This document shows positions 1,044 through 19,125 of a stretch of 55,484 bases of DNA, piece by piece; the first letter of the stretch is position 1, and every line of letters begins with the position of its first letter. The stretch lies in the IMG/VR virus record IMGVR_UViG_3300050331_000110, positions 1-55,484 of that record. One strand, written 5' to 3'. Below the pieces are notes generated by a model. It had not been told where the DNA came from. It made no database searches and worked only from the letters and a program-made list of their open reading frames with translations. Made by a program: the position numbers and the translations under genes. Origin of the DNA: a virus. Lineage: Duplodnaviria; Caudoviricetes.

Positions 1044-1199
1044 ATGTACCTAACCCTCGTCATCCTTGCCATCCTGTTCTTCGCCTTCCTGGCTTACGCT
1101 CCAGAGGTGGCACTTCAGACGCTATTGGCCGGCGTGTGGCTACTGATGATTGTCGCCGGGGTTGGCAGCATTGCGTGGGAAATCGTCAAAAGGCTCTAG
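1044..1199 (+). CDS. 51-aa two-TM membrane protein (moron, possible superinfection exclusion)
   Basis: Read manually: MYLTLVILAILFFAFLAYAPEVALQTLLAGVWLLMIVAGVGSIAWEIVKRL; upstream TTGCCA(1010)-16-GATAAT(1032); overlaps the 3' end of the giant gene. Confidence 0.6.
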   Translation: MYLTLVILAILFFAFLAYAPEVALQTLLAGVWLLMIVAGVGSIAWEIVKRL

Positions 1200-4100
1200 C
1201 CTCAAACTGGTCCACCGCCTCGTTGAACTTCAGCATCTCCGCCGTGATCCTGTCTTCTATGCGCTTGATGCTTTCCCTTGTTGCATCCTTGGCAATCATT
1301 TCGCGCTTCTGCCGGCGCAGCTTTTGAACCACCCTGTCGGCATGCTCGGCACGAACGATAAGGCGATACTTGGGATTGTCGCGCTTGAACTCGTCGGTCG
1401 GGACCCCATCATCGCGCCGCCCCTTTAGCTCGGTGGCCAACAGGTTGATCTCCTTCAGGTTGCCGTAGAACTTGTTGCCCTGGCTGGACTGGTTTTCGGT
1501 ATTCCCATAGAACCGGCCGAACAGAGGGATCTTGTGCGTAGGCAAATCCTCCCCTGTGACCATGGCGCCACCGGTCTGTGCAGCCTTAGACAGTTCACGC
1601 CCAACGCCACCAGTAACCTGCCCGATCAGGTAGTCAATCTGATCCGCGGTCGGGCTGAATGCGCCCGGAGTGTAGTCTGTGCCACCAGTCGCCCAATTCA
1701 CCCCTTCGGCCATGAACTTCGCCCAAGCGCTTGCCGTGTCCTTGTTGCGCTCAAAGCCTGGGGTCGGCTTCATTGAATTGAAGTCATCCTTGTAAATCGG
1801 CTTTCCGGTCCAGTCGCGGTTTTCTGCCAGCGCTGCGAACGGGTCAATGGCGGTCGGTGCGATGGTCTGCATCGACAAGCCGGCACTTCCGATGGGGTTG
1901 AAGGCTTCGGCGAATACCGCAATCAGGCGAACCACATGCTCGGCCGGATTCTTGAATCCGCCCAGCGCAAACTCGGCCGGGATGCGCCCAAGGTTGGTTA
2001 TGGCGTGATAACCAAGTGGCATCGGGATGGAAATGTACCGCTTTCCGCCTATCGGGAAAATCAGGTTGCGCTCGCGCATGAATTCAGGCGGCTCGTCATC
2101 ATCGAACCCGGCCGCGGCCAGAGCCAAGGCCTGCGTGACTCCCAGCAACACCCCCCCACCAACAATAGCCTTGCCCATCTTGCTCAAGCGCAGCGTCTTG
2201 ATGTCGCCGCCCTTCATGTCAAACACTGTATGTCCGATGCGCGAGGTTCCCTGCATCGCAGCATTAAAGAAGGCGTACAGCGCCCCGGCCTGCTGCCCAG
2301 CCTGCCCCTTGCGGTTGAAGTTGACGGTGGTGTTCTTCGCCAGGCTGGCCGCCTGCTGCTTGGTGAGACCGTTGTCGATGGCGGTCTTGTAAATGGCCAG
2401 GCGCGTGGAACCTTCCATCATCAGGTTGTAATCAGACAGCCAGTCGAAAATAGGGGTCGCCAAGTCCTGCGCCACGGTCAGCGGCACCTTGAGCGTTCCA
2501 TCTGCCGTAAACACCTTGCCCCACTTGCTGTTCACCCACCCATGCGGATCAAGCTCATGCTCGATTGCCTTGGCGCGATCTGCGCTGTTGCGGTACAGGT
2601 CGCGGTAGCCTGTCATGCCACCCTCGTCCTGCAGCTCTTCCCATAACTGCGCCCATCTCGAGGTTGCCGGATGCCCCTTGCGCTCGGCGCGCGCATCCAG
2701 ATAGATACCCTTTGCGGCAGACAGGATATACCCCATCACCTCGGCCTTGTGTTTGGCCAGTGGGGTCGAGGTCAGATTCAGTGCCGCGCCCTGCACGTCG
2801 CGCACCAGGTTGGTAAAGCCGAAAATCGGGTTATATTGCGTATTGATCGAGGCAAAGTATCGCGTGATCTTGGCTGATACGCCCAGCACGCCGCCCAGCT
2901 CAGTAGCGTCCAGGTTCTTCATCGACTGAGCCATGCGCATTGCGCGCTCGTCGTGCTCGTTGAAAATCACCGCCCGTTCGTGAACCTGCCCGTTGCCGTC
3001 CTTGATCTTGGCGATTACCACGTTATCGCGGCTCTTGAAGGTCGGATCGATACGCTCTTCCACCAGCCCGGTCGTCTCATTCAGCACGCGCTCGGTAGGC
3101 ACCTTGCCGAACGTCCAGAAGTCAGGGTTCGGGTTGAGCTTCGCCAGCCCGGCTAGCGCCACGGCAACGCGGTTCTTTTCGCCGCGGACAATCGCCTTCT
3201 CGCGCTGCATGGCGATATTGGCGAAGATGTCCACCACGGCAGCCGTAGAACCGGTGCGATGCTTCACTTCCTTACCCTTAATCGAGAACCCCTGCCCGAT
3301 GCCCATGCTGCCATCGTGATCCTCGCGCATCAGCGGGACGTAGTGCTTGAACATCTGCGCCCAGCTATCGGCCTGGTCCTTGGAAACCAGCCCGTAGGAA
3401 ACGTACAGGTCGCGCGTCTTGGCGATGATGGAATCCACCTTCGCCGCGGTCGCGTCCAGCCGCTTGAGCTTGTCCGCCGGCAGCTTGGCGAAATAATCGT
3501 CCGCCTCCTGGTTGGTCATTCCAGAGCCGCCGTCCTGCATATTCGGGTCGCGCTGCGCGATCAGCGCATTGGCTTCCTTTGCATGGCGTGCGTGCAGGTA
3601 TTCGTCAAGTTCGTCCATGGTCAGGCCGCGCGCCTGCATCTCCACCAGCAGCGGCTTGAGTTCGGTGTTGACGAAATCCTGAGTGCGCTTTGCCGCCCGT
3701 CCGTGGAATAGCTCTTCCTGCAGGTAGGCGTTGTATTTTTCCGCCAGTTGCGCACCGGTACTGCGCACCGCCTCGACCACCCGCTTCAGGTCGATGTTCT
3801 TGTCCTGCAGCTTGTAAACCAGATCATCGAACATCGAAGGCTCTGGAGAGTCCCATGAGGCGCTGCTTCCTGCCTGACCGCCTTGAAGCGGGATACTTCT
3901 CTGCCGTGGAGGACGGATACCGGGATAGGAAAGGCCGATGTCGCCTGTTGCCGATGGCGCAACAGACGCCAGCGGAGAGTCTAGTGCTTCAGAATCCGCA
4001 GGCTTGGATTGAGCTTTTGAAAGTATGCGACGGCTTCGTTCTGCGCTTGCTGAAGCTGCCCTAGTTCGGAGTTCGTCAGTCGTTCGGAAACCAATGAGGT

Positions 4101-7100
4101 ATTGGGCTTCGTCACTGGTGAGCGCGCTTGGCTCAACGCCGAAGAGTTCTCTGATTGCTTGTCCATGACGCACCTCCAAACTGCGAACGATTTTCGCATC
4201 AGGTGTAATGTTACCAGAACGGCTGGCGTTTGTCAGCAGCACCGCGCCAGATACAACACCGCCTTGCGACTGGATGTAGCTCGCCAGGTCGGCCAGCGTA
4301 CCGCCCATCGTGGAAACATCATCGACCAGGACATACTTCTGCCCGGCCACCACTTTCCCTCCAAACTCGGAACGCGCGATCAGGCGCTCCATTGCGTCAG
4401 CTCCGGTGTGGTAGGCCTTGTTCGTCTGTAATATACCGGTTGCCAGCATACCGCCGGCCTGCTCTACATAATGCCGTGCCAGCGCATTCGGTATCTGATT
4501 CTTACCGGACGCCTCCAGTGCCATCACCGGAAGATAGGCCACATCGTCGCCGAACTTTGCACGCGCCGCCTCGATGCTCTCCGGCTTGACAAGATCGGAC
4601 ACAAGCCGCACCGCCGCGCCGATGTCGCCGCCCTTGGCCGCCTTGTAGTCGGCATGGCGTTTCAGCGTTACATCGTTACGGAAGTCGGACATCACTTCGC
4701 CTGTGAATGCGTTGCTGCGCGACGAAGCATTGTCGTTCTGAGTGCGCGATGCCATTACCGCTCCACCCGTATCTTGCACGCCTTCCTGTTCTGATTCTGA
4801 CACCGCGCGTATCTGCTCGCGGAGCATGGCGACTACATCTGCATCGCTCACACCTTCCGACTGCTTGCCTAGCATCCTGGCGACGAAGGCGCGCACCGCA
4901 TCGGCCACCCGCTTGAGCATGCCAAGCAGGTTGTTGCGCATGACTACCGGCACCTTCACACCGTAACGGCTCAGAATCGCGTCATGGTCTCCGGTCACAT
5001 AGGCGGCCGTCAGTTCGGCAATGGCTTCGTCCAGGTGGGTCTTTTCGCTGTATGTCTGGCCACGGTCGGCGGCAATGGCCTTGGCGAGCTTGCGCACAAA
5101 GCCGTTCTTTCCGGCATGATCCAGCGCCGCAGCTATGCCGCGATCCAGCATGCGGATCCCGCCATGCCCGGCCACTTCATGCACCGCCACCCATACCGCG
5201 CGTTCTGGCGTGGCGATGTTGCCCGCGATCAGATAGACGGTTTTGGTCAGCGGGTCATAGATACCCTCGGTGCCTTGGTCTATCGGCTTGGCCGCACGAA
5301 GCGCGCGCAGGTACAGCTCGGTCGGTATTTCCTTGACTGACCGCACAACCTTGACGTTCTTGAACCCTGCCCAGCTTGCGCGCAGTCTGGCGGTGGCTTG
5401 GGTGACGGACTCGACGGTTTGACCTGCATTTTGTGCCGATACGCTCTGCATCACCTCGCCGGAGTCTGACAGTTCGCGCGCCCGCTCCAGCAAGTCGGCA
5501 TTACCCTTGGTCAGCATCTCGACCTGCAAAGCCTTGGCCGGCCTGTAGCGCGCAGCAAAGTCATCGTCCGCCCGATCCAATCCGCTCAGATTATGGATGA
5601 TGTCGGCCAGCTTGATGGTCTGCGCTTCAGCACTTATTTTAGAACTGCGCTCTCGCTTGGCCGCCTCGCGCTCTTCGCGGGTGCCAGCAGTCTTTTCGTC
5701 AGTCAGTTCGGCTACAAGGTCGGCCACCTTATCACCCAGCTCGCGGCGCACGTCCTCGATGGTCGCCTTGGTATCCTCAACCGTGTCATGCACCCATGCG
5801 GCGGCCAGCATTTCCTCAGTGTGCGGAACGGTTTTCAGCACCTCAACCACCCCGGCCGGATGCGTAATGTACGGCTCGTTGGTGAACTTGCGGCGCTGGT
5901 CTATCTCGCCGTGATGCCGGTCGGCGAATGCCTTGGCCTTCTGCACCAGCTCGGAGTCAGACTTATCCTGGCCATCCCTGACCATTTCGGCCTCGAGTGC
6001 CGCTGCTTCCTTGGTCTTGTCTGCCAGTTCCTGCGCAAACTGGAACGGCGCATCCATCCTGCCTTCAAGTGAGCCGCGCTTGGACTTGGCATCGGCTATT
6101 GATTGGCGCATCTCGTCAGGCTTGCGCGCAATGGCGGTCAGTGCGTTGGTCGCGCGGATCGTCATGCCAACCGGATCTTCTATCGGGTCGCGCGCCAGGA
6201 TAACGCCATCCTCGCCCACCTTCATTTCCAGCCTTGCGTAATAGCCCAACACCTTGCCGTCATTGTTGCGGTCGATATTTCCGATGATCTCCACCGGGAA
6301 GCCGGACAACTCGCCGGCCACCTCGCGCCCCTCTTTGCTGGAATCGGTGTATTGCTTCAGCTTGGCCAGCAGCGCCTCGCCCCATTCCTTCCTCTTATCG
6401 AACACCTGCTTGCCAGCCTTTGCGGTGAACCGGTCTCCGCTCAAGTCCTGCACCTTGGCGGCCAGCTTCTCTGCTTCTGGAAGCCTGCGCTCCGAAACAT
6501 CGATGGTATTTCCGGCGAGCATGTAGGATTCCTTCATGCGCATCCGGTTGTCTTCGTGCGCCCGATAGAGCCGCTGATACTTCTCGATGTCCGCCTTGAG
6601 TCCGGCCAGTTGTACCGCCCTAGGATCTCCGGCCGTCATGGCCGTGGCCATCTCGAACTGGCTCACCTCGGAAATGTCGTCCAGCGTGCGCACCGACGAG
6701 TCTCCGGAGAGCGCCTGATCGATGAATCGCTGCTTGCTGGCCAGCATCTGCCACATCACCGTGTCGTAGCTGTCCTTTGTCGAATAGGCGAAAACCCTAA
6801 CTCGGCGGTTCTTATTCCCTTGACGGATGATGCGCCCCTCGCGCTGCTCGAGGTCGGACGGATACCATGGCGTGTCCAGGTGGTGCAAAGCGCGCAGGCG
6901 CTGCTGTGCGTTGACGCCAGTACCCATGTTCTTGCTGCTGCCTGTCAGGATGCGCACGCGCCCGGCGTTGAAATCCTTGAACAGCTTTTGCTTGGCGTCC
7001 GACTTCTTGTAGTCCGACATGAAGGCCACTTTGCTCAACGGGATGCCGGCACCCTGCAGGCGCTTCTCGAACCATGCGCGCGCATTGAACCCGCGATGTT

Positions 7101-10100
7101 CCGCCACCCCGGCACCAAAGCCAAGGTCTGAGAACACCATCTGCGTGGCACCCTTGGCCTCTTCCACCTTGCCGGTTTTTTTGTCGGTGTACTCGAAATC
7201 GGCGTATTTCTTGTATGACCTGATAACGCCATCGATCATCTGGTTCAGCTTGGAATTCGGGTCGGAAGGCAGCGACGGGTCGATGAAGCGCATGTCGATG
7301 GCCGCCAGCCTGCCATCACCGATGATCTTGATGATCGGATCGGGGTTATTCGGCTCATCCCTCGATGGCTTCCAGTCGCGCGACTTTTTGAGCCGGCTCG
7401 CCAGCACTTCCTTGTACGCGCGGTAATCCTCGACTGCTGGGGTGACGACCAGCCGGCGGTTGCCTTCCTTGAGCTTTGGCCGCTTGTCTCCAAGCATTTC
7501 CGCCAGATGGTCTGAGGTCAGGACATCGGCGAACTCGCGGAACATCTGCGTCAGTTCTGGCACGTTCACGAACTTCGAGAAGCGCGTTACCGGTGAATAC
7601 TTGCCGGAAGCATCGGCCTCGATGGCGGTATGCTCTTCGCCAAACATGGATGCCCAGGCATCGAACTCCTGCAAGCCGCGCTCTTCCAGCACCTGCGGAG
7701 CCATGAACCGCTGCACGGTATAAAGTTCGGCTATCGTGTTGGTGATCGGCGTGCCGGATGCCATGACCAGAGACCGGCCCGGCTTCTTCTGTTCCAGCCA
7801 GCGGGTTTTCATCCACAGGTCGAAGGCGCGCTCCGAACCAGTGGAGCTGATGCCCTTGACCTGCCTTGTCGTGGTGAACGCCAACTTGCGGAATTCGTGC
7901 GCCTCATCGACGTACAGCATGTCCACGCCCATTTCGTCAAAGCGCACGTTCTTGTCCTTGCCTTCGCCGGACATGGCGGCCTTGAGCTTTTCTTCCAGTT
8001 TTTCGATGCGGTTCTGGATGTCGCGCACGCGAGGGCTGCGGCTCTTCTTGGCATCGTCCACGCCTTCATCGTCCAGCATTTCCTCCATGGCCGCTTCCAT
8101 CTGGTCGAGCTGCTCTTGGATCATCTTCTGCTTGAACTCAGGGTCCAGGTCGAGCAGCTTGAATGCGGAATGCGTGATGATGACGCCATCCAGGTCGGAC
8201 ATGGCGGCGCGCGTCACGAAGCGGCGGCGGTTCTCGGTATGGAACTGCTTTTCGTCGGCAACCATCAGGCGCGCTGCCGGGTAGAGTTGCAGCCATTCCT
8301 GCGCAAACTGCTGCAGCATGTGGTTTGGAACAACCATCATTGGCTTGTTAATCAGGCCGAGGCGCTTCTGTTCCATGGCCGAAATAACCATTTGCCAGGT
8401 CTTGCCGCTCCCGACCGCGTGGGCCAGATAGGTATTGCCGGTCTGAATGACGCGCCACGCGCCGCGCTTCACATGGTCGAATACCGGGATGGTCGAGGTC
8501 GTGCCGGGCAAGGTCAGGTGCCGGCCGTCAAACTTGCGAGCGACGATGGTATTGAATTTGTCGTTATACAGCGCAACCAGCTTGTCGGTGCGCGCGCTGT
8601 CCTGCCACATCCAATCCTTGAAGGCTTGGCGCATTTCCTTGAGCTTCTGGTTTGCCGCCTCGGTGGCGTTGGCATCGAACACAGTCTTCTTGTCGGACCC
8701 GCTGCCTTCCGTCCTGGTAACGCGGATCGGCCTGCCGGTCAGCCCGGCTTCCAGAATGTCGGCGGCGTTGCGCTGCGGCGTACCCCAATCCGAGGTTGCC
8801 TGCACGGTGCTATACCCGGAAATGGCATCGACGCGCCACTGGCCGGTATGCTCGTTGTAATCCACCGTCGCCTTGACTCCCGTCTTTTCCCGCAGGAATT
8901 GCGCATATACCTCGCTGGGGATCCAGTTCATGCCCAGCGCCGCGGTAATGTCTGCCGGGGATACCGGAGCCGGCTGCGCCGCGATCAGCGCCTCCACGTT
9001 GCGCTCGAAGCGTTTGTCGGCCTTGGCGGCTTCCTTGGCTTCCTTGAGCTTCTTCTTCACGTTGCCGGACAGGTATTCGTCCTGCATCTGCCAGCCTTGC
9101 GATGGAGATTCGTAGATTGACGAGCCAAGCGCCTCGATCACTTCGCGCTCATTCAGCCCGATACGCTCTGCAATCAGCGGCAGGTTGACTGTGCCGGTGT
9201 CATTCAGGACAGACAAGAGCGCATCGTGCGGCGTGCTGATGTTGGCAACCTTGCGCATTTCCAGCACGCGCTTGTGCAGGAACTCGCCCTCCTTGATCTC
9301 GCCGGTTTCCTCGTTGAGCGATTCCAGCGCGTACAGCTTGGAATACTCCGGATCATCCATGAGCTTATTGAGCAGGTCGAAGCGGCGCGACGGCGTGACA
9401 ACCTCGACCTTTTCCCCGGTATCCTCGTCTATTTCCGTAGTGGTGCGCTCGACAACGGTGTTTTGCAGGATGTTCCCATGCTTCTTGACGAAAGACTGGT
9501 ATTCATTCCGCAGAGCTTTAAGAGAAGCCTCCCAATCCCCATCGTTCAGCTGGTCGTATTGCGCCTGATTCACCGCATCGCGCAGCTTCACGAAGTCCTT
9601 GACCATGGGGATGCTCTTGAGAGCTATGTTTGCCGGAACGCCTACGCGCCCCTCTATCTGCATCAGCCGGCCATCATCGGCAACGTAATAGTTACCCTCC
9701 TTCTTGGCCTTCGGATTCCAGTCGATCTCCCGTACCTGGGCGGCCTGTGCGGAGCTTCCCGCTTCCGGCCGGTAGGCATCCTTGGGCAGCTTGTCGATGG
9801 CGTCCGTCAGCAGCTTCTCGATAGGCACCGACTTGTTGGGCAGCACGGTGTACTGGTTCTCGGCGTACATGCCGTTCTTATCCAGAGCACCCTCGCCAAG
9901 CACCATGTCTGGATTTTTGGCGAAATACTCATTGATAAGGTGCGTGCCGCCCTTGACCTTGATCTTTTCCAGCTTCATCCAGTCGTGGCCTTCAAAGGTC
10001 TCGCCCGGAACCTTCTTGCGCAGGAACAGGATGTCCGTGACGACTTCCGTGCCGGCGTTCTTCTTGAAGGCCGTTTCCGGCAGCCGGATCGCCCCCAGCA

Positions 10101-13100
10101 GGTCGGCGCGCTCGGCAAGGTATTGCCGCGCCTTGTCGCCCTGCTTGTCCATGGTGTAGCGGCTGGTAACGAACATCACCAGGCCGCCCGGCTTTACCTT
10201 GTCCATGGTTTTGGCGAAGAAATAGTCGTGCAGCGCAAAGGCGTTTTTCTTGTAGCGCGGGTCCGACAAAACCTTGGTATCCGAGAAAGGCGGGTTTCCG
10301 ATGGCCACATCGTAGAAGTTGTCAGGCAGGGCGGTGTCGATGAACGATTCCACCAGGATGCGCTCGTCCGGCTGCAGGTGTTTCAGGATGGCACCGGTCA
10401 GCGCGTCATACTCGATGCCGGTATAGATTGAATTATTGGACACGGCGGACGGCATCAGGCCGGGGAATACCCCGTTACCGGCGCCCGGCTCAAGAATCGC
10501 GCCACCCTTGAACCCGAGGCGGTCCAGCGCGCGCCACATCTCATTGACTACTTCCTTGCCGGTGTAGTGCGCATACTGCGTGGACCGCTCGGCGGTAGCC
10601 CATTCCTCATCGGTCAACAGCCCTTTCAGGCGGTCGCGCAACTCCAGCCACTTGATCGCGTCCTTGTCCTTGAGCAAGTTTTCCAGCATGGGCTTGCTTA
10701 CTTCCTGCCCATACATGACAGGATGGCCAGCCGCATTCAGCATGGACGTGACCGTATAGTACGGGCTGGCGTAATCGTAGCGGCTCAGAGACTCCTTGCC
10801 GTTCTTTGTCAGCCATTCATGCGCGTCGTTGTAGGTATCGACCGCGCGCTTGACGCGATCAATCTGCGGGTCGAATATCTTGTTCCGGATGTCGGACGCG
10901 CCCCAGCCGATGAACCGGGCGAGCTTAGCCTGCTCTTCGCGGGTGGCCTTGCGGCCTTCTGATTCGAGATTTTTTACAATCTCGATGGCCTCGATGTTTT
11001 GCCGGGCCTTGACCAGCCAACTCCCCTTGTAATCCAGGTCGGAGTCGGTGAAGTGGTAGTTCAGTCCTGACTTGGCCGGGATGTCTCTTCCGGCGGGAAT
11101 TCCAGCTGCTCGGCCAGCACGATCTCCCTTGCTTGGTGCAGCGCGGCGTTGTAGATCGCCGTCCGCTCCATTCCCTGCACCTCGTTCATCCCCTGCTTGA
11201 CCGCTATCTGATGCGCCAGGGATGTCGTTAGCGACGATATTTCCTCCGAGCGCTCCATGATGAACGCTTCCAGATTGCCGCTCGATTGCAGTTCCGCCAT
11301 CAATTCCGGCGCCTTGTGCTTGAGTGCTTCGCGCACCAGGTTGCTCGTTTTCATGCTGCGCTCCTTGTGTGGTATTTTTGCCACTACCCGATGCTTCATT
11401 ATTGCTTATGGTTGCATTTTTTGCTATAGTGTGCTTGGAGGAACCAGAAATGAAATTACCAGATAAGTTTCCCGTAGGCACCAAGTTCTTCGAGTCGGAA
11501 GGCGGAGATGCTTTCTGCAAGATTGGCGACGACTGGTTCAGGCTGGATTGTGAGCTGGGAGATGAGCCGTCGCTTTGCCCAATGGATAACGCGCCGATCT
11601 CGTACTTATTCTCCGTGTCCGAAGAATACTTCTTGGGCGATCTTGCAAAGGCGGCAGCATAAAGCGCCTTCTGCGCGTCGTCCAATTCGGCCTTGAGCGG
11701 GTCGTCATCACGAAGCACTCTTGAGTGCTCATAAAGCTCGTGACCTAAATCTTTAGCGGCCAACATGGCGGGGATGTTAATCTGAATTTCCGCTTTCGTT
11801 CCATCCTTCAAAACCACGTTGATTAGAATGTCACGATAGCCGAGCGGATCAGGCTCTTTGAATCTGTCTTTCAGGCGCTCGCCCCTTCTATCACGGTCTA
11901 ATACAAATTTCTCGCGGATGGCTTTAATGGCAGCCTGAATATCATCAGTTGACTTGACGACAATAGTGGCGCGTAGCAGGTCGCGCATTTTTTCTGTCTC
12001 ATACCTGCGCACGCCAAACAAGTCAGGCGCAGACCTGTTTTCAATATGCAGTTTCTCAGCCGCCCGACCAATCCCTTTCACCTTCGCCAGCATTTCGCCG
12101 ATACCGACCTCATTGGCAATCTCAACAACCATCCGGTCGAACTCCGGCTTATTCTTCTCAGCCTTGGCAAGTAACGGCTTGAGTGCAGCTTCTGCAGCCG
12201 CACGGTCCTCTGCGCTGATGGTTGTATCTTTGGCCTTCGGAGCCTTGGCGATCAGGTCATGAGCGCGTTGCAGCACATCGCCAGGCACGAACTCATGCAG
12301 CGCAGGTAGCTTGAAGTTGCGGCCATCAGATTTCTTGTCCGCGTTGGTCATGCGATCCTGAACGTGACCGTCTTCGCTCTTTCTGGCTTCTGCCTCCATC
12401 CGGTCAGCGGCGGCACGCAGCAACTCGGCGGCGGACATTTCGCTTGCAGGCTTGTGCGGTGTGTTGGCGCGGATGGCTTCGGCGTATTTCCTGGATGGTT
12501 GCTCAACCAACACAGCGGCCAGTTTGTTGAAATAGACAACGGGGTACTTCGCCCCCATGTCTGAAGTAATATCTCCTGCCGCAGCTCCGATACCAGACTT
12601 GATTCCGTTGCGCTTGAGGCCGAAATGCTCGATCAGGAACGGCGAGATTTCAGGCTGACGCAGGTAGGTATGACCATCTTGAAGCTGCGGGAATGCGGCT
12701 TTCCATTCTGAGAATGTCGGGTTTTCTCCGTCCTTGATCTTATCTGCTGCAGCTTTCTGCGCCGCAACAATCTTTTCGTGCTGCGCCGCGAATCCAGATT
12801 GCGCATCCATCGTTTCGCGCAAACTCTTCGCGGCAGCACCCTTACTGTCCATCAGATTGCCAGCAAGCTCTCCGCTTTGCGCTATCCACTTGCCGCGCCC
12901 AAGCTGGCCTTTACCTTCGCTGAAAACGGTATCGGTCGGCAGGCTGTACTGCTCGATTATTGCTTGATCGCTATTTACGCTTCCTGCCTGTGCGCTTGAC
13001 GTTTTTTCCGAAGGCAGATCAAGCAGACTTGCCTGGCCATGGGCTGCGCCAACATCTGCAGGACGGTCAGAACCGGTCAGTAAGAATTCATCAGGGGATG

Positions 13101-16100
13101 GCGCAGAGTCGCGCTTTGCTTTCTCGTCAGCGGATTTCTTGGCGGCAGTTTCGCGCGCCAATACTTCGGCATTGGTGTAGCTTTGCAGAACCGGTGCTTC
13201 CTGCTCAAACAGCCCTTGATTATCAAAGAACCCTTCCGGCATGTTGCCGGCCGCATTCTTGGCTGCCTCGTCCAGCCAATCCCTTGGCAGGAATTTCGCC
13301 AGCTTTGCATCCAGCTTGGCCAGTTGATCGCGCACATAGCGCGAGGCGTCCTTCATTTCGTAGTAGCCAAGGCGGAAGGCGGCATCGAACATCTTGACCA
13401 GAACCGGCATCCACTTCGGCCTGTCCTCCGGCACGATGTTCATTACCCCGGCCATCCCGCGCAGCAGTGCGCCAGCCTCGGCAAGTGCCGATTCCATATC
13501 GGCCTGCGCCTGGGCGCGTGCATCCTGTCCTGTTGATTCGCGCGCATCCAGAATGGCTGCACGGTTGGTCTTGCTGATGAAAGCCCACCCGGCAGGCTTG
13601 ATGTCCAGCCCGGCCTTGGCAATGGCCTCCTTGCGTTGGTCGCTGGTGAGGGATTCCCACCAGGATTTTGACTCTACTTCTTGTTGCGTTCCTGCTTCGG
13701 CGGACCGGACTTCTTGAGCTGCTCGATCACCAGTTCGTCCTGCTTGGTCTTCGGCTCCCCGCTGAACATCCTGCCCAGCAGCGCCGCGCCCTGCGGACTG
13801 TCCCAAGTCTTGCGTCCCTGTGGTGTCATTGTCGAACCTCCTTAAAACATCCTCACGAACCGTACCCGTCCCGCCGAACATATCCCCGGCGGCATTGTGT
13901 GCAGCACCCTCGGCAGCGTAGTTCGCCGCTCCGTTCAGCGCCTCAGTGATGCGCTTGGCTGACCGCACGTTCTGCGCGAACATATCCAGCACCACCTGCA
14001 CACCATTAGAATGCGCCAAATCCTTCTGATTGGCAAGTTTTGTGACAGAAACACCTTGCCGGCCGGCATTCACCACGGCCGTTGCGGCCTCCACAATCAG
14101 CGGACGGATGTCCAAATCACCGGCACCTTCCAGCTTCATCATGGCCGGCGCCGCATTGGATAGCGCGGCGATCACGGTTCTGGCTTCCGGTTCGGTAGAT
14201 TGCACCGCCAGTTCTACCAGTTCCTCACTGCCATAGGCTTGATACAGACTCGCGCCGAGCACGCGATCCACGGCCTGCTTGGTCGGCACGCCATTTGGCG
14301 CCAGGTTCTGCCTTTCCCCTTCCGGCATGGCCTGAATAAAGCCGCGCATCGCCTCGGTGGTCGGCGTGCCGTTCTCGTTGAATGTCAGCGCGGCAATGTC
14401 CACCCTTCCGGCATCGTTGCGAGCCTGTTCGACCGCGGACAATCCAAGCGTGCCGGTGGTGTTGCTCTCGTCGCCGATACTTTCCGTCACATGCTCGGCA
14501 CCGATCAGGCGCACCAGTACCGGTTTTTTCATGCCGCGAATCACGCCAGCATTGATGCCATGCACGCCTTCCGCCTTGGCGATGGCCTCCTTGTATGCCA
14601 GTGCCGTGCCTTTGCTGTACGCCTCTATCACCCCGGCCGTGCGGCCGTTGTTGATCGCCACCAGCTTATAAGGATTGGCGGCATATTCCGGATTGCGCGC
14701 GCCGTCCGCAAAATTGGAAGTGGCGAGCTGGTCTGCCTCGACAACGGCATACCGGAACGGGATCTCGCGCTTCCCGGTAACTACCGCATCCTCATTGCCG
14801 ATATGCTTCACGACCCCCTTGTTTTCCAGGTCGGTCACAACAGGGGCGCCGTTCTCCATGGTTGGGGATGCCATCAGCAGGCGCGGGTTTGGATTGGCTG
14901 CGATGGCCTGCATCTGCAGCACAGAAGCCTTGCTGTTGCGATTGCGGTTTTGCAGGGATTGAATAACCGGGTTTGTTACTGCACCCCGCCCTGCGGCGGA
15001 GTCCAGTACAGCTCCACCTTGTCCAGCGCCGCCCACAGTTGCGCCGGTATCTGGTCGCAGTTCAGTTGATCGGCCAGCATCAATGCCTGCGCCTCCTGTT
15101 CGGTCAGCACTTCCAGCGGCATCCAGTACGGAAGTTCTTGGTGCAGCAGTCGTGCCATTGGCGGACTCCGGTTGTTGAGCGACATTCGCGGCCGGTTTTT
15201 TGATGGGCGCCGCGGGTTGTACCATTTCAGGCAGCTGCGGCAGACTATTAAGGTATTCGCGCTGCGCCACGTTCAGGTGCAGCACCTTCCCCTTGCTATT
15301 GACCAGTTTCTTTCCGCCTGCGGCCAGCCTGTAGCCGCCCAACAGGTATTCATCGACCTGGGCGATCTTCTGCTCAAGCGTGCGCTCCGCATTCGGCTTG
15401 GCTTGTGGATGGCCAGGAATGCCAAGATCCACGGCCGGCTCTTCCGGCATGGCATTGAACGCCTGATAAGCCTGTTCGCGCTTGGCGATGATGGCCTTCT
15501 CTTCGGGCGTGGGCATGGGATTGTTCGGGAATTCCGACTCGAGCGCGGCCAGGAATGAAATACCGGGCGTGCGCTCTTCTGGATTGGTATAGACATCATC
15601 CAGTAATTTAAGGCGTGCCGCGCGTGTTTCTTCGGCCTGCACGCCTGCGACTCTGGCATCCACAGACTCAAGCGCCGACTCGCGCTGGATACCTTGCAGG
15701 TTAATCAGGCCTGCGCGGCGCTGTTCTACATCGGCGCGCTCTTGTGCCACAAGGTCGGCCAGCTCATTGACTGCGCCGAAACCGGTTGTGCCTTGCGATA
15801 AGGCTCCGAATTCGCGCACAGGCGGCGTAGCCTCTTGCGCCGTAGCCGGATCATCCAGCAGATCGGTAGCGTCAAGCGAGGTTGCATCGTCGAACTTCTG
15901 CAGGGCCTCATCAACGGATGGCGCGGCGAGGATGTCTTCGGGGGTGGTAATTTCGTTTGCGGCAGAAATTAACCCCTTGTATTCGAGATTATTGCCTGGT
16001 GCTTTATTGTAGTTGTAGGCTGTTTCGGCGGCGCTTTGCGTGAAGCTGGATAGCGCCTCGATGGTAGCGTCAACGGCATCACCCTTTCCGGTTGCCGCCA

Positions 16101-17028
16101 TCTCGCCAAAGTATTCGCCAACACCTTCGCCAAGCGTTTCCATGCCAAGGCCGGTGCCGGCAATGCCAGCTTTTTTTCCGACCGACAGTGCGGACGTTGC
16201 AGCCTTTTCTCCGGCTGTGACTGCCGCCTTGTAGAGTGCCTTGTCTGCAGCCAATGCGGCATTGATCGTTGCGGGAGTTGACATATCCACCCCAGCATTG
16301 AGCAATACCTCGGCTTCTGCTCTTGCCCCGGCGCGTTTCGCCAACTGCCCACCAATGGCGTTAGCCGTGACTCCGCCCATTTTCAAAGTTGCAGCATCGA
16401 CCGCTGTTATCACCCCAGCCTTGACAGCACCCTCTTTAATTGCCTCGCCGCGCTCCGCCTCGGTAAATCCGCCTTCCGACTTTTCAAGAGCCTTGCCACC
16501 AGTTTCAAGCAGTGTGTTACCAAGGAACATGCCGCCAAGAAAACCAAGCGCGCCGCCTACTGCCGTTCCAACGCCAGGCGCAACCATTGTCCCAAGAGCC
16601 GCTCCCGTCTGCGCTCCAGCCAATCCGCCGCCAAGCGCAACAGCACTATTCGGCGCCTGCTCGGCAATCATTTGAACGGTTCCCATCTTATTGCGGCCGG
16701 CCGCGGCCAGCGTATCGCCGATCTGTCCAGCAACGCCTTGCTCACGGTCAATAGCGGCAATCTCTTCTTGCAGCTTGCGCTGTTCGGCTGGCGTGTTAAT
16801 GGCAGCGGATTCTTTGGATGCCGCAGCATAACCCTCTACATCGGCAAGGTCGCCGGTATAGGTATTCCCGGCCGCACCAACCATGCGCCCGGTTTGCTTG
16901 GCTCCGGTCCAAACATTTTTCACTGCACCGATCAAGCCGCTTGGAGCTTCGGATTCCTTCGGAATTAAATCGTCAAACGCTCCGGCAGATGAGGTGTTAC
17001 CAGGAATAAGATCGTCAAATGCGCCCAT
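1186..17028 (-). CDS. Giant polyvalent DarB-like virion/ejected protein (ParB-like, RelA/SpoT-like, N6-MTase, SNF2 helicase, HD hydrolase, metallopeptidase, PRTase, LPD38-like)
   Basis: 5280-aa uninterrupted ORF; motifs LQNRNR..GAPVV, RDLLRAT/GYRD/EIQI, ILEPGAGNG/GNPPF, AHAVGSGKT/DEAH/QREGRIIRQGN, PYITHP/HDTVED/KLAD, HEVAGH, VLVDDVSTMGGT; lies at the end of the structural operon. Confidence 0.92.
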   Translation of the reverse strand: MGAFDDLIPGNTSSAGAFDDLIPKESEAPSGLIGAVKNVWTGAKQTGRMVGAAGNTYTGDLADVEGYAAASKESAAINTPAEQRKLQEEIAAIDREQGVAGQIGDTLAAAGRNKMGTVQMIAEQAPNSAVALGGGLAGAQTGAALGTMVAPGVGTAVGGALGFLGGMFLGNTLLETGGKALEKSEGGFTEAERGEAIKEGAVKAGVITAVDAATLKMGGVTANAIGGQLAKRAGARAEAEVLLNAGVDMSTPATINAALAADKALYKAAVTAGEKAATSALSVGKKAGIAGTGLGMETLGEGVGEYFGEMAATGKGDAVDATIEALSSFTQSAAETAYNYNKAPGNNLEYKGLISAANEITTPEDILAAPSVDEALQKFDDATSLDATDLLDDPATAQEATPPVREFGALSQGTTGFGAVNELADLVAQERADVEQRRAGLINLQGIQRESALESVDARVAGVQAEETRAARLKLLDDVYTNPEERTPGISFLAALESEFPNNPMPTPEEKAIIAKREQAYQAFNAMPEEPAVDLGIPGHPQAKPNAERTLEQKIAQVDEYLLGGYRLAAGGKKLVNSKGKVLHLNVAQREYLNSLPQLPEMVQPAAPIKKPAANVAQQPESANGTTAAPRTSVLDAAGSADRTGGAGIDAGRSTELRPDTGATVGGAGQGGAVLDSAAGRGAVTNPVIQSLQNRNRNSKASVLQMQAIAANPNPRLLMASPTMENGAPVVTDLENKGVVKHIGNEDAVVTGKREIPFRYAVVEADQLATSNFADGARNPEYAANPYKLVAINNGRTAGVIEAYSKGTALAYKEAIAKAEGVHGINAGVIRGMKKPVLVRLIGAEHVTESIGDESNTTGTLGLSAVEQARNDAGRVDIAALTFNENGTPTTEAMRGFIQAMPEGERQNLAPNGVPTKQAVDRVLGASLYQAYGSEELVELAVQSTEPEARTVIAALSNAAPAMMKLEGAGDLDIRPLIVEAATAVVNAGRQGVSVTKLANQKDLAHSNGVQVVLDMFAQNVRSAKRITEALNGAANYAAEGAAHNAAGDMFGGTGTVREDVLRRFDNDTTGTQDLGQSAGRGAAGQDVQRGAEDQAGRTGDRAAQEVRSAEAGTQQEVESKSWWESLTSDQRKEAIAKAGLDIKPAGWAFISKTNRAAILDARESTGQDARAQAQADMESALAEAGALLRGMAGVMNIVPEDRPKWMPVLVKMFDAAFRLGYYEMKDASRYVRDQLAKLDAKLAKFLPRDWLDEAAKNAAGNMPEGFFDNQGLFEQEAPVLQSYTNAEVLARETAAKKSADEKAKRDSAPSPDEFLLTGSDRPADVGAAHGQASLLDLPSEKTSSAQAGSVNSDQAIIEQYSLPTDTVFSEGKGQLGRGKWIAQSGELAGNLMDSKGAAAKSLRETMDAQSGFAAQHEKIVAAQKAAADKIKDGENPTFSEWKAAFPQLQDGHTYLRQPEISPFLIEHFGLKRNGIKSGIGAAAGDITSDMGAKYPVVYFNKLAAVLVEQPSRKYAEAIRANTPHKPASEMSAAELLRAAADRMEAEARKSEDGHVQDRMTNADKKSDGRNFKLPALHEFVPGDVLQRAHDLIAKAPKAKDTTISAEDRAAAEAALKPLLAKAEKNKPEFDRMVVEIANEVGIGEMLAKVKGIGRAAEKLHIENRSAPDLFGVRRYETEKMRDLLRATIVVKSTDDIQAAIKAIREKFVLDRDRRGERLKDRFKEPDPLGYRDILINVVLKDGTKAEIQINIPAMLAAKDLGHELYEHSRVLRDDDPLKAELDDAQKALYAAAFARSPKKYSSDTENKYEIGALSIGQSDGSSPSSQSSLNQSSPILQKASPPSDSKNLVPTGNLSGNFISGSSKHTIAKNATISNNEASGSGKNTTQGAQHENEQPGARSTQAQGAGIDGGTAIERQSGSVHHGALGGNIVANDIPGASDSGQAGDERGAGNGADGDLQRRAAPSKGDRAGRAAGIPAGRDIPAKSGLNYHFTDSDLDYKGSWLVKARQNIEAIEIVKNLESEGRKATREEQAKLARFIGWGASDIRNKIFDPQIDRVKRAVDTYNDAHEWLTKNGKESLSRYDYASPYYTVTSMLNAAGHPVMYGQEVSKPMLENLLKDKDAIKWLELRDRLKGLLTDEEWATAERSTQYAHYTGKEVVNEMWRALDRLGFKGGAILEPGAGNGVFPGLMPSAVSNNSIYTGIEYDALTGAILKHLQPDERILVESFIDTALPDNFYDVAIGNPPFSDTKVLSDPRYKKNAFALHDYFFAKTMDKVKPGGLVMFVTSRYTMDKQGDKARQYLAERADLLGAIRLPETAFKKNAGTEVVTDILFLRKKVPGETFEGHDWMKLEKIKVKGGTHLINEYFAKNPDMVLGEGALDKNGMYAENQYTVLPNKSVPIEKLLTDAIDKLPKDAYRPEAGSSAQAAQVREIDWNPKAKKEGNYYVADDGRLMQIEGRVGVPANIALKSIPMVKDFVKLRDAVNQAQYDQLNDGDWEASLKALRNEYQSFVKKHGNILQNTVVERTTTEIDEDTGEKVEVVTPSRRFDLLNKLMDDPEYSKLYALESLNEETGEIKEGEFLHKRVLEMRKVANISTPHDALLSVLNDTGTVNLPLIAERIGLNEREVIEALGSSIYESPSQGWQMQDEYLSGNVKKKLKEAKEAAKADKRFERNVEALIAAQPAPVSPADITAALGMNWIPSEVYAQFLREKTGVKATVDYNEHTGQWRVDAISGYSTVQATSDWGTPQRNAADILEAGLTGRPIRVTRTEGSGSDKKTVFDANATEAANQKLKEMRQAFKDWMWQDSARTDKLVALYNDKFNTIVARKFDGRHLTLPGTTSTIPVFDHVKRGAWRVIQTGNTYLAHAVGSGKTWQMVISAMEQKRLGLINKPMMVVPNHMLQQFAQEWLQLYPAARLMVADEKQFHTENRRRFVTRAAMSDLDGVIITHSAFKLLDLDPEFKQKMIQEQLDQMEAAMEEMLDDEGVDDAKKSRSPRVRDIQNRIEKLEEKLKAAMSGEGKDKNVRFDEMGVDMLYVDEAHEFRKLAFTTTRQVKGISSTGSERAFDLWMKTRWLEQKKPGRSLVMASGTPITNTIAELYTVQRFMAPQVLEERGLQEFDAWASMFGEEHTAIEADASGKYSPVTRFSKFVNVPELTQMFREFADVLTSDHLAEMLGDKRPKLKEGNRRLVVTPAVEDYRAYKEVLASRLKKSRDWKPSRDEPNNPDPIIKIIGDGRLAAIDMRFIDPSLPSDPNSKLNQMIDGVIRSYKKYADFEYTDKKTGKVEEAKGATQMVFSDLGFGAGVAEHRGFNARAWFEKRLQGAGIPLSKVAFMSDYKKSDAKQKLFKDFNAGRVRILTGSSKNMGTGVNAQQRLRALHHLDTPWYPSDLEQREGRIIRQGNKNRRVRVFAYSTKDSYDTVMWQMLASKQRFIDQALSGDSSVRTLDDISEVSQFEMATAMTAGDPRAVQLAGLKADIEKYQRLYRAHEDNRMRMKESYMLAGNTIDVSERRLPEAEKLAAKVQDLSGDRFTAKAGKQVFDKRKEWGEALLAKLKQYTDSSKEGREVAGELSGFPVEIIGNIDRNNDGKVLGYYARLEMKVGEDGVILARDPIEDPVGMTIRATNALTAIARKPDEMRQSIADAKSKRGSLEGRMDAPFQFAQELADKTKEAAALEAEMVRDGQDKSDSELVQKAKAFADRHHGEIDQRRKFTNEPYITHPAGVVEVLKTVPHTEEMLAAAWVHDTVEDTKATIEDVRRELGDKVADLVAELTDEKTAGTREEREAAKRERSSKISAEAQTIKLADIIHNLSGLDRADDDFAARYRPAKALQVEMLTKGNADLLERARELSDSGEVMQSVSAQNAGQTVESVTQATARLRASWAGFKNVKVVRSVKEIPTELYLRALRAAKPIDQGTEGIYDPLTKTVYLIAGNIATPERAVWVAVHEVAGHGGIRMLDRGIAAALDHAGKNGFVRKLAKAIAADRGQTYSEKTHLDEAIAELTAAYVTGDHDAILSRYGVKVPVVMRNNLLGMLKRVADAVRAFVARMLGKQSEGVSDADVVAMLREQIRAVSESEQEGVQDTGGAVMASRTQNDNASSRSNAFTGEVMSDFRNDVTLKRHADYKAAKGGDIGAAVRLVSDLVKPESIEAARAKFGDDVAYLPVMALEASGKNQIPNALARHYVEQAGGMLATGILQTNKAYHTGADAMERLIARSEFGGKVVAGQKYVLVDDVSTMGGTLADLASYIQSQGGVVSGAVLLTNASRSGNITPDAKIVRSLEVRHGQAIRELFGVEPSALTSDEAQYLIGFRTTDELRTRAASASAERSRRILSKAQSKPADSEALDSPLASVAPSATGDIGLSYPGIRPPRQRSIPLQGGQAGSSASWDSPEPSMFDDLVYKLQDKNIDLKRVVEAVRSTGAQLAEKYNAYLQEELFHGRAAKRTQDFVNTELKPLLVEMQARGLTMDELDEYLHARHAKEANALIAQRDPNMQDGGSGMTNQEADDYFAKLPADKLKRLDATAAKVDSIIAKTRDLYVSYGLVSKDQADSWAQMFKHYVPLMREDHDGSMGIGQGFSIKGKEVKHRTGSTAAVVDIFANIAMQREKAIVRGEKNRVAVALAGLAKLNPNPDFWTFGKVPTERVLNETTGLVEERIDPTFKSRDNVVIAKIKDGNGQVHERAVIFNEHDERAMRMAQSMKNLDATELGGVLGVSAKITRYFASINTQYNPIFGFTNLVRDVQGAALNLTSTPLAKHKAEVMGYILSAAKGIYLDARAERKGHPATSRWAQLWEELQDEGGMTGYRDLYRNSADRAKAIEHELDPHGWVNSKWGKVFTADGTLKVPLTVAQDLATPIFDWLSDYNLMMEGSTRLAIYKTAIDNGLTKQQAASLAKNTTVNFNRKGQAGQQAGALYAFFNAAMQGTSRIGHTVFDMKGGDIKTLRLSKMGKAIVGGGVLLGVTQALALAAAGFDDDEPPEFMRERNLIFPIGGKRYISIPMPLGYHAITNLGRIPAEFALGGFKNPAEHVVRLIAVFAEAFNPIGSAGLSMQTIAPTAIDPFAALAENRDWTGKPIYKDDFNSMKPTPGFERNKDTASAWAKFMAEGVNWATGGTDYTPGAFSPTADQIDYLIGQVTGGVGRELSKAAQTGGAMVTGEDLPTHKIPLFGRFYGNTENQSSQGNKFYGNLKEINLLATELKGRRDDGVPTDEFKRDNPKYRLIVRAEHADRVVQKLRRQKREMIAKDATRESIKRIEDRITAEMLKFNEAVDQFEARAF
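3981..4166 (-). CDS. Nested 61-aa gene in the +1 frame, over the end of the PRTase domain
   Basis: GGAGGT RBS before ATG; MDKQSENSS...SERLTNSELGQLQQAQNEAVAYFQKLNPSLRILKH; promoter-like site upstream. Confidence 0.65.
   Translation of the reverse strand: MDKQSENSSALSQARSPVTKPNTSLVSERLTNSELGQLQQAQNEAVAYFQKLNPSLRILKH
4208..4236 (-). promoter_or_regulatory. Internal sigma70-like promoter inside the PRTase coding sequence
   Basis: CTGACA-17bp-TAACAT with extended TG, about 40 nt upstream of the nested ATG at 4166. Confidence 0.55.
11061..11354 (-). CDS. Nested 97-aa TnpV-like helical protein in the +1 frame
   Basis: AAGGAG RBS; LQSSGNLEAFIMER...KQGM...NAALHQAREIVLAEQL resembles TnpV from memory; the giant frame here is a low-complexity linker. 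Confidence 0.7.
   Translation of the reverse strand: MKTSNLVREALKHKAPELMAELQSSGNLEAFIMERSEEISSLTTSLAHQIAVKQGMNEVQGMERTAIYNAALHQAREIVLAEQLEFPPEETSRPSQD
11398..11430. promoter_or_regulatory. Overlapping divergent sigma70-like promoters inside the giant gene
   Basis: Plus strand TTGCTT(11402)-17-TATAGT(11425) with extended TG; minus strand TAGCAA-17-AATAAT; locally AT-rich. Confidence 0.65.
11450..11662 (+). CDS. Antisense nested 70-aa acidic protein, candidate antitoxin/immunity for the RelA/SpoT-like domain
   Basis: GGAGG at 11437-11441, own promoter; MKLPDKFPVGTKFFESEGGDAFCKIGDDWFRLD...; converges on the end of the synthetase domain. Confidence 0.72.
   Translation: MKLPDKFPVGTKFFESEGGDAFCKIGDDWFRLDCELGDEPSLCPMDNAPISYLFSVSEEYFLGDLAKAAA
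13674..13829 (-). CDS. Nested 51-aa basic protein in the +1 frame after the ParB-like domain
   Basis: TAAGGAGG RBS 7 nt before ATG; MTPQGRKTWDSPQGAALLGRMFSGEPKTKQDELVIEQLKKSGPPKQERNKK; below the ORF-track cutoff. Confidence 0.62.
   Translation of the reverse strand: MTPQGRKTWDSPQGAALLGRMFSGEPKTKQDELVIEQLKKSGPPKQERNKK
14976..15158 (-). CDS. Nested 60-aa protein in the +1 frame just before the ParB-like domain
   Basis: GGAG RBS; globular-looking MARLLHQELPYWMPLEVLTEQEAQALMLADQ...LDKVELYW while the giant frame is a Gly/Ala/Arg linker. Confidence 0.62.
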   Translation of the reverse strand: MARLLHQELPYWMPLEVLTEQEAQALMLADQLNCDQIPAQLWAALDKVELYWTPPQGGVQ

Positions 17029-18230: not shown

Positions 18231-18246
18231 GTTGTATCCCCTTGGA

Positions 18247-19122: not shown

Positions 19123-19125
19123 GAT

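Follow-up and report, generated by a model that had tools for sequence, protein, structure and literature searches.

A giant polyvalent protein of a prophage combines a Tas1/Apk-like synthetase domain with a MESH1/SpoT-type hydrolase domain

We analyzed a gene of 5,280 codons in IMGVR_UViG_3300050331_000110, a 55,484-base IMG/VR provirus (Duplodnaviria; Caudoviricetes) that is 94% complete by CheckV; the whole record is the window to which all nucleotide positions refer. Judged from its sequence, the product is a giant polyvalent (DdrB/DarB-like) protein with about nine modules in one chain (Table 1). An earlier reading made from the letters alone (the sequence-only reading) had proposed a virion-injected polyvalent protein with both an alarmone synthetase and an alarmone hydrolase. 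The most informative refinement of that reading is that the synthetase is of the toxin-type Tas1/Apk clade, as judged by profile and predicted fold, and is a core module of a clade of giant phage proteins. We consider it probable that the protein is a polyvalent DdrB/DarB fusion carrying swappable cargo on a virion chassis, in which the Tas1/Apk-type synthetase has an HD-domain hydrolase as its partner.

The gene is a single open reading frame (ORF) with an ATG start and no internal stop in its 5280-residue translation. A ribosome-binding site, AGGGAA, lies 4 nt 5′ of the ATG, and the stop of the preceding gene is 9 nt away. The gene takes up 15,843 of the 55,484 bases (28.6%), in agreement with the earlier estimate of about 29% of the prophage. 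Since the DNA is 57-60% G+C and the protein has hundreds of full-length relatives, a frame of this length is not due to chance. The modules are separated by low-complexity linkers, and all of them fall inside the ranges and in the order first proposed. At least two disparate biochemical activities per chain, a gene placed among the late or virion genes of a phage or conjugative element, and delivery to the recipient along with the DNA define a polyvalent protein, delivery being a prediction here; this chain has ParB, RelA-SpoT homologue (RSH) synthetase, methyltransferase (MTase), SNF2, HD, phosphoribosyltransferase (PRTase) and LPD38 modules, and its gene lies in a provirus, where it directly follows the terminase, portal, capsid and tail genes on their strand. 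The ParB, N6-MTase, SNF2, HD and LPD38 calls were supported directly by Pfam or profile matches, and the RelA/SpoT-like and PRTase calls, which are below the Pfam cut-offs, after family-profile or structure work. The sequence-only reading had staked its domain calls on profile searches, and these did not refute it; the peptidase alone stays at the level of a motif with a weak fold match. Residues 1-672 and ~1160-1590 matched no family in Pfam, PHROGs or NCBIfam, a sub-cut-off Gly-zipper aside, and phmmer searches of the two protein halves against the PDB gave no match for residues 1-2700.

Because the match of the synthetase domain to Pfam RelA_SpoT (PF04607; aa 1654-1762, nt 11743-12069; E 4.6e-5) scored 24.1 bits, under the 27-bit cut-off, we built a family profile, A1, by aligning aa 1590-1795 with 20 diverse relatives. 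Against the PDB, A1 matched Tas1 (6ox6) with an E value of 2.1e-15. Five of its nine matches at E<=10 were RSH synthetases, the four listed besides Tas1 having E values of 8.9e-4 to 0.25. The A1-Tas1 alignment has the motifs K..R...K, DLxRxT, GY, EIQ[IV]NxPEM..AK and GHKxYE in common. All family-invariant residues are present in the giant protein (K, R, K, D-L-x-R-x-T, GY, EIQIN-P-M, K and GH, among them K62, K70, D94, R97, T99, G141, Y142 and E158 in A1 numbering); the invariant D is residue 1683 and EIQIN lies at residue 1747. An AlphaFold (AF2) model of the domain had a predicted local distance difference test score (pLDDT) of 89.6 and a predicted template modelling score (pTM) of 0.84. Foldseek placed SaEAS (8vx3; E 5.2e-8, TM 0.69) first, followed by Tas1 (1.9e-7), RelP/RelQ and the long Rel enzymes; there were 68 matches at E<=0.001, and all displayed rows were alarmone synthetases or Rel/RelA/SpoT. 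Fold alignments to Tas1 and SaEAS gave TM scores of 0.65-0.69 at only 17-23% identity. The fold and profile evidence together place the domain in the superfamily, its sub-cut-off Pfam score notwithstanding. By sequence profile and structural model, it is a Tas1/Apk-like RSH synthetase, with the RelA-SpoT fold and with Tas1, not the (p)ppGpp synthetases, as its nearer relative.

When residues 1580-1800 served as the query, the synthetase was found in 88 of 119 listed relatives of the giant protein, at 33-83% identity. Pfam lists flag PF04607 in only 5 of 120. The Tas1-like domain is a core module of the giant-protein clade and is missed by standard Pfam annotation. Among 1.84 billion sequences, A1 matched 4,737 representatives at E<=0.001, 1,784 at <=1e-10 and 99 at <=1e-30. 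In the best 150 of these representatives, 77 have at least 1,500 residues and 56 have fewer than 1,000; 17 of the 56 also match Pfam RelA_SpoT, and other domains in this group are ART-PolyVal (2), SLT (2), MuF (1), portal (1), InPase (1), ddrB-ParB (1) and NUDIX (1). The Tas1-like domain occurred in two of 50,697 GenBank phage records, which are one Bordetella phage listed twice, indicating that the synthetase-bearing clade is essentially uncultured. Scanning viral contigs for the synthetase gave three loci with a single-sequence query and 52 with an alignment query. Genome contigs, searched with one narrow pattern, yielded 13 loci in Azospirillum, Nitrosomonas, Micavibrio and alphaproteobacterial metagenome-assembled genomes, too few to give a host range. 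In one viral record (G052, the record of L088), the Tas1-like domain is split across the record ends, 51-422 (-) and 56890-57132 (-). This contig has direct terminal repeats, and its giant gene spans the arbitrary start of a circularly permuted genome.

The hydrolase domain matches Pfam HD_4 (aa 3698-3821, nt 5566-5937) with an E value of 1.7e-15 and 57.5 bits against a cut-off of 27.2, and its motifs are intact (ITHP, HDTVED at aa 3747, and KLADIIHN). Its PDB matches include Lmo0812 (1.2e-18), human MESH1 (4e-18) and the hydrolase domains of Rel, RelA and SpoT, and the alignment to 4yf1, 3nr1 and 5vxa covers the whole MESH1 core, including the H, HD, ED and D..N motifs. The domain also matches TIGR00691 spoT_relA and phrog_990. 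On these grounds it is MESH1/SpoT-type and small alarmone hydrolase (SAH)-like, with hydrolysis as its predicted activity. In P0003-P0008, a group of relatives, the HD hidden Markov model (HMM) gave a second, short partial match 450-1,000 residues past the main HD, at about residues 3920-4160 (4665-4736 in P0005), which may be a degenerate second copy or chance.

The HD domain is tied to the synthetase in its distribution. With the HD HMM we found it in 12 of 265 proteins, and all 12 also carry the synthetase. It starts ~65-80 residues after the end of the synthetase in four relatives (P0010, P0025, P0033 and P0034) and lies after the helicase in the giant protein and in P0002-P0008; the direct tandem in the one set and the post-helicase position in the other point to two different HD insertions. 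When 50 of the 52 synthetase-bearing viral contigs were searched for HD_4, 11 had a match (10 above the cut-off), two inside giant ORFs and nine in small ORFs of 162-247 residues elsewhere in the record. Eight of these nine small ORFs carry HDxxED, and eight match the HD of the giant protein at 30-42% identity. Among synthetase records that are at least 90% complete, 5 of 19 have HD_4. Control contigs were sought with a P0016 query (15 loci, several already in the synthetase set) and a SNF2 alignment (34), leaving a small final set of 25 further related contigs, of which four carry the synthetase and none carries HD_4. HD_4 is therefore present in 11 of 54 contigs with the synthetase and in 0 of 21 without it (Fisher one-sided p 0.0195, shared ancestry ignored). 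Fusions in cis alone gave 11 of 88 versus 0 of 31 (p 0.030, again ignoring shared ancestry). Both enzymes of the sequence-only reading stood; by sequence and by analogy with Apk2-Aph1, the pair reads better as a toxin-type, Tas1/Apk-like synthetase with a hydrolase that acts as an optional partner to it, either fused in cis or encoded in trans, than as two independent tools for manipulating signals.

Apk2 is a MuF-fused (p)ppApp synthetase toxin of a temperate phage; immunity to it comes from a Tis1-like binder and from the hydrolase Aph1, and injection of such toxins has been raised as a question (Ahmad et al., 2023; PMC10083569). As in the giant protein, a Tas1-like synthetase on a phage virion-associated scaffold is accompanied by an HD-family small alarmone hydrolase. 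Apk2 and Aph1 are products of neighbouring genes, whereas the giant protein has both domains in one polypeptide and no MuF: it had no Pfam match to Phage_Mu_F and so does not belong with the Apk2 MuF toxins. No Tis1-like gene was identified, although no search was aimed at one. The hydrolase of the giant protein is nearest to MESH1 and Lmo0812, and Aph1 can be likened to it by HD family only. Hydrolase immunities of this kind are interchangeable (Paulet et al., 2025; PMC12226406). The best sequence and fold matches to the synthetase, the type VI effector and (p)ppApp synthetase Tas1/Apk1 (6ox6) and the exported alarmone synthetase SaEAS (8vx3), differ from the giant protein in their means of delivery, which are PAAR or a Sec signal. 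The long RSH enzymes Rel and SpoT also unite HD hydrolase and SYNTH domains within a single chain. However, their order is HD then SYNTH, side by side at the N-terminus; in the giant protein it is reversed, the domains are ~1,885 residues apart and the synthetase is of the toxin clade. TGS and ACT regulatory domains gave no Pfam match, which likewise sets the giant protein outside the long RSH enzymes. In the literature we found nothing joining ppApp with polyvalent proteins, and none of the work found on small alarmone hydrolases with phage virion injection concerned giant proteins. The SaEAS paper surveys Apk1 homologues, and its main text is without giant or polyvalent proteins (PMC12691689).

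To see how the modules are distributed, we searched 5.8 billion proteins; 838 of 1,204 scored candidates matched the giant protein at E<=0.001, with sizes of 2,904-9,240 aa. Coverage per module was taken from BLAST against the 119 listed relatives in 100-residue bins. The MTase-SNF2 core (residues 1900-3700) was covered in 117-119 relatives, the SNF2 helicase module itself in all 119, the ParB block in 95-109 depending on the bin, and residues 1600-1900 in 87-90. Coverage was far sparser for the HD region (11-12), the peptidase region (9), the N-terminal 400 residues (7-8), the PRTase region (5) and the C-terminal module (3). Cargo positions in the family are highly mosaic. Pyrophosphatase is accessory cargo in P0002-P0005, and PF28553, PF28554 and PF28555 are listed for relatives. 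The architecture search that the sequence-only reading had suggested led to the metagenomic cluster P0002 (4,695 aa; 10 members, from 7 contigs), in which all modules from ParB through LPD38 follow one another as in the giant protein, at 24%-85% identity per module, with the first ~680 residues missing. The combination is therefore found outside the giant protein too. The class is known, and a near-identical architecture exists elsewhere.

The modules predicted to protect DNA resemble those of phage P1. A ddrB-ParB core (aa 690-840, nt 14509-14961; Pfam E 5.6e-20) lies within a block, aa 673-1085, that is 26% identical to residues 51-437 of P1 DdrB (E 8e-25) and also matches phrog_2299 and phrog_5143. 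The MTase module contains an Eco57I-type N6-MTase match (aa 2228-2310; Pfam E 1.2e-7) with the motifs EPGAGNG and, at aa 2245, NPPF, and is 30% identical to the N-terminal MTase of P1 DarB. In the helicase module, Pfam ResIII, SNF2-rel_dom and Helicase_C matches span aa 2864-3404, with GSGKT at aa 2873 and DEAH at aa 3041. P1 DarB is colinear with this core in three BLASTP segments, MTase, helicase N and helicase C (E 4e-22, 3e-15 and 5e-15), which bears out the earlier description of the core, an N6-adenine MTase fused to an SF2 helicase, as DarB-like. DarB and DdrB form a head-packaged anti-restriction system, and in P1 DarB protects from type I restriction. They are the products of two genes (2,255 and 995 aa), whereas the giant protein is one chain with the synthetase between the corresponding parts; identity is low (23-30%). 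Packaging of DarB in P1 depends on DarA/Hdf. Pfam and PHROG matches of the upstream ORFs revealed no DarA, Hdf or DdrA homologue beside the giant gene, a search that does not settle dependence on DarA/Hdf.

As the sequence-only reading had stated, phage polyvalent proteins are an established class, defined by Iyer, Burroughs, Anand, de Souza and Aravind (2017), who proposed autoprocessing and injection (PMC5512222). They reported RelA/SpoT, PRTase, ddrB-ParB, LPD38 and HEXXXH zincin domains in phage-type polyvalent proteins and placed RelA/SpoT acquisitions in Spirochaetes and epsilon-proteobacterial prophages (PMC5512222). The giant protein has this signature set, the zincin as a candidate, and adds HD. 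The terms "HD domain", "phosphohydrolase" and "hydrolase" do not appear in the main text of that paper, as distinct from its supplementary architecture lists (PMC5512222).

The PRTase module matches Pfam Pribosyltran (aa 4197-4285; E 3.8e-4) with 20.2 bits against a cut-off of 26.3. It contains a phosphoribosyl pyrophosphate (PRPP) loop, VLVDDVSTMGGT, at aa 4233-4244, with VDDVSTMGGT at aa 4235, that aligns to the APRT loop. Profile A2, built from six sequences over residues 4131-4340, had 29 PDB matches at E<=10, of which 25 were adenine or orotate PRTases (best 3.2e-4, over only ~35-60 residues). The module also matches phrog_22413, a 242-aa phage family, with an E value of 1.8e-65. For the HExxxH peptidase, the motif and its position stood: HEVAGH lies at aa 3950 (nt 5164-5181) and is invariant in five of five aligned sequences, as are the glutamates E142 and E146 (numbered within the domain). 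It had no Pfam match, a profile of residues 3860-4110 gave one irrelevant PDB match only, and Foldseek with the predicted model returned nothing at E<=0.001, zincin-named rows at E~1 not being evidence. In this model (pLDDT 77.5), a helix (H13-26) and three strands (E33-36, E63-66 and E71-75) precede helix H82-102, which bears HEXXXH, and further helices. An exhaustive structural aligner (VIA) ranked a predicted zincin-like protease, 3e11, best (Z 5.9, root-mean-square deviation 2.9, 73 residues); no chain reached Z 8, and Z 5.9 is below the level treated as safe. Motif and model are consistent with a candidate HEXXXH zincin variant, as in polyvalent proteins, at aa 3860-4110.

At its ends the protein carries hydrophobic stretches (aa 152-174 and 4952-4975). 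The first belongs to the hydrophobic Gly/Ala N-region noted earlier, which also has GAFDDLIP repeats at aa 2 and 16 and a weak Gly-zipper (Gly-zipper_Omp, aa 133-171; E 0.0033, under the Pfam cut-off); this region is possibly membrane-active. The C-terminal module contains LPD38 (aa 4978-5169, nt 1522-2097; Pfam E 4.6e-42) and matches phrog_14770, phrog_616, phrog_10691 and phrog_10089. Stand-alone viral LPD38 proteins of ~870 aa resemble its 881 residues (Atlas). The module has matches in 346 phage records, those of 933W-like Stx-converting and Vibrio phages among them, and in 293 the match covers at least 80% of its length; Bcep22-like phages have it as well. The C-terminal module is likely a virion-association chassis, and podophages may share a common chassis of this kind onto which cargo was fused. 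In 933W (NC_000924.1, 54749-57199), part of a large "LPD5 domain-containing protein" is ~30% identical over 91% of the module, and a protein family in ~100 Vibrio phages also matches it.

Related giants have been found in virions. JC1 gp69 (4,515 aa) was detected in purified virions by mass spectrometry, with 51 unique peptides (PMC9144972, Table 6). It is one of the "DarB-like" giants of Bcep22-like (Lessievirus) and Ralstonia podophages, which likewise lie at the end of the structural module. The Bcep22-like and Ralstonia proteins are 43-49% identical to the giant protein in the core and ~35% in the LPD38 C-terminal region, but their match begins only at residue ~1871. JC1 gp69 carries an SLT lysozyme at its N-terminus, together with LPD3, and is without the ParB, Tas1-like, HD, HEXXXH and PRTase modules. 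A 4,203-aa protein of Dartukuta (L002, MW749009.1, "Bacillus phage vB_BspP_Dartukuta") has ParB and a 56%-identical C-terminus in common with the giant protein and carries other cargo, InPase, GNAT and ART. Annotations of the Dartukuta genome include an "outer membrane lytic protein", which is unexpected for a phage of Gram-positive bacteria and may cast doubt on the host label.

Taken with the position of the gene, the presence of the homologue JC1 gp69 in virions suggests packaging and injection: the protein would most likely be made late, packed into the capsid and released with the DNA into the next host. There the MTase-helicase core would shield incoming DNA from restriction. The RSH-like domain would act as a nucleotide 3′-pyrophosphokinase, draining ATP by making (p)ppApp or similar alarmones from it. 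Removal of the product would fall to the HD domain, as Aph1 neutralises Apk2, here fused in cis. Such a hydrolase could guard the producer cell before packaging or limit the burst after injection. Cleavage of the polyprotein into separate units may be the role of the HEXXXH domain, and the PRTase would be independent cargo.

Several observations weigh against this reading. The Pfam scores of the synthetase and the PRTase are below cut-off, and the best fold match of the peptidase is weak. All relatives known to be virion-associated are without the ParB, synthetase, HD and PRTase modules. SaEAS yields (p)ppApp as well as (p)ppGpp (PMC12691689), and motif swaps left the specificity of Apk2 unchanged (PMC12226406), so the products of the synthetase cannot be read from its sequence. 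The large terminase gene of the prophage is in two frames, and this copy may therefore never be packaged or may be defective. The association of hydrolase and synthetase rests on small numbers that ignore shared ancestry; 77 of 88 synthetase-bearing relatives are without a hydrolase in cis, and 43 of 54 synthetase contigs, many being fragments, have none in the recorded sequence, indicating that the hydrolase is not an obligate partner. Finally, since stand-alone hydrolases occur in many phages without a Tas1-like domain, a role against host alarmones is equally natural.

On this last view, the HD hydrolase would be a counter-defence against host (p)ppGpp or (p)ppApp, or against toxSAS pyrophosphorylation, and its proximity to the synthetase would be incidental cargo shuffling. 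By tblastn, not the HMM used for contigs, HD/SAH-like sequences were present in 299 of the 50,697 GenBank phage records, with jumbo phages and SSU5 among them, and almost none of these records have the Tas1-like domain. The highly mosaic cargo fits this view, as does the closeness of the HD to MESH1/Lmo0812 and to the (p)ppGpp hydrolase domains of Rel and SpoT, the small alarmone hydrolase/hydrolase chains 6z3n and 6z3o matching only at E 0.036-0.092. We nevertheless regard this explanation as unlikely. All 12 HD-bearing giants have the synthetase, in two independent arrangements of which one is a direct tandem, the contigs split 11 of 54 versus 0 of 21, and Apk2-Aph1 shows that SAHs serve as immunity to phage-borne synthetases (PMC10083569).

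A second alternative concerns the product: the RSH-like domain would make no (p)ppApp, but either (p)ppGpp for a stringent-like shutdown or, like FaRel2 and CapRel, pyrophosphorylated tRNA 3′ ends. Iyer et al. (2017; PMC5512222) suggested that the RelA/SpoT domains of polyvalent proteins shut down the host through alarmones, the enzyme with the nearest fold, SaEAS, has a dual product and specificity is not predictable from motifs. Set against these points, the only strong PDB profile match is to the (p)ppApp synthetase Tas1, the other four listed having E values of at least 8.9e-4, and DLxRxT, EIQ[IV]NxPEM and GHKxYE are common to the domain and Tas1, and we hold this alternative to be quite improbable. 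A third alternative, in which the prophage is defective and the gene a relic, its protein neither packaged nor injected from this element and some modules decaying, would fit the large terminase in two overlapping frames (33668-34408 and 32904-33779) but is very unlikely, given a 15.8-kb frame without a stop in which all family-invariant catalytic residues are kept, pointing to recent or ongoing selection, 94% completeness by CheckV, and a terminase frameshift that might stem from faulty assembly or be programmed.

On the favoured reading of a polyvalent fusion with a synthetase and its partner, the Tas1-like domain is the conserved core of a large, mostly uncultured clade of phage proteins of 4,000-5,500 residues. 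SAH fusion or co-carriage then suggests a hypothesis of how a phage handles a fast ATP-draining enzyme that is first made in its own host. If the domains are active, they would represent natural alarmone chemistry at the moment of infection and a source of compact synthetase/hydrolase pairs. Otherwise, the protein is an ordinary, if very large, member of the class described in 2017. A bolder proposal, which we hold only as a long shot, is that synthetase and HD form a virion-delivered, self-limiting nucleotide-drain device that briefly starves ATP-dependent host defences at DNA entry. The Tas1-like domain would convert ATP to (p)ppApp and AMP, and the HD would convert (p)ppApp to ATP/ADP and pyrophosphate (PPi), so that on balance ATP would be hydrolysed to AMP and PPi and the alarmone would rise only in a short pulse; the pyrophosphatase of P0002-P0005 or the PRTase of the giant protein would tune the PPi/PRPP side. 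To our knowledge, (p)ppApp synthetase toxins have so far come from type VI secretion, toxin-antitoxin modules, exported enzymes and MuF fusions. If true, such a device would be the first case of a toxin joined to its enzymatic immunity within a single injected polypeptide, and it would make a cryptic Tas1-like domain a core part of a large giant-phage-protein clade.

Table 1. Modules of the giant protein and other genes of the prophage record
Feature	Residues	Position	Strand	Description or basis
Whole gene		1186..17028	-	Giant polyvalent protein, 5280 codons + stop
N-terminal region	1-400	15829..17028	-	Two GAFDDLIP repeats, Gly/Ala-rich, hydrophobic stretch
DdrB-like ParB module	673-1085	13774..15012	-	Pfam, P1 DdrB, PHROGs
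Tas1/Apk-like synthetase	1590-1795	11644..12261	-	Profile, AF2 model, Foldseek
N6-adenine MTase module	1990-2500	9529..11061	-	Pfam Eco57I, P1 DarB, motifs
SNF2/SF2 helicase module	2850-3480	6589..8481	-	Pfam, P1 DarB
MESH1/SpoT-type HD hydrolase (predicted)	3680-3840	5509..5991	-	Pfam HD_4, PDB, TIGR00691, phrog_990
Candidate zincin-like metallopeptidase	3860-4110	4699..5451	-	HEXXXH motif, weak fold match
Phosphoribosyltransferase-like module	4131-4340	4009..4638	-	PRPP loop, profile, phrog_22413
C-terminal 881-aa module	4400-5280	1189..3831	-	LPD38, hydrophobic helix
Small terminase		34411-35031	-	Structural module
Large terminase ORF		33668-34408	-	phrog_2 positions 265-402
Large terminase ORF		32904-33779	-	phrog_2 positions 425-604, phrog_5653
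Portal		29650-32076	-	Structural module
Major head protein		27210-28250	-	Structural module
Tyrosine integrase		1-981	+	Record end; directly beside 3′ end of giant gene
Host purA (adenylosuccinate synthetase)		54174-55484	-	Opposite record end

The giant gene lies at the end of the structural module, and the terminase, portal, capsid and tail genes precede it on the same strand (-). With the integrase at one end and host purA at the other, the record spans nearly the whole integrated element. The two large terminase ORFs (32904-34408, -) overlap in different frames, whether through a frameshift, through faulty assembly or through programmed shifting; the split bears on the inducibility of the prophage. 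The ORFs upstream of the giant gene (17038-21946) gave no informative Pfam or PHROG names. A free-standing 586-aa DNA methyltransferase is encoded in the early region (41431-43191, -; phrog_67, E 2.3e-71), giving the phage a second MTase besides that of the giant protein. The ORF listing also has dozens of small frames inside the giant gene, and small nested or antisense frames lie around the synthetase (11061-12262) and at the 3′ end of the gene (1010-1199); many such frames arise by chance at this G+C.

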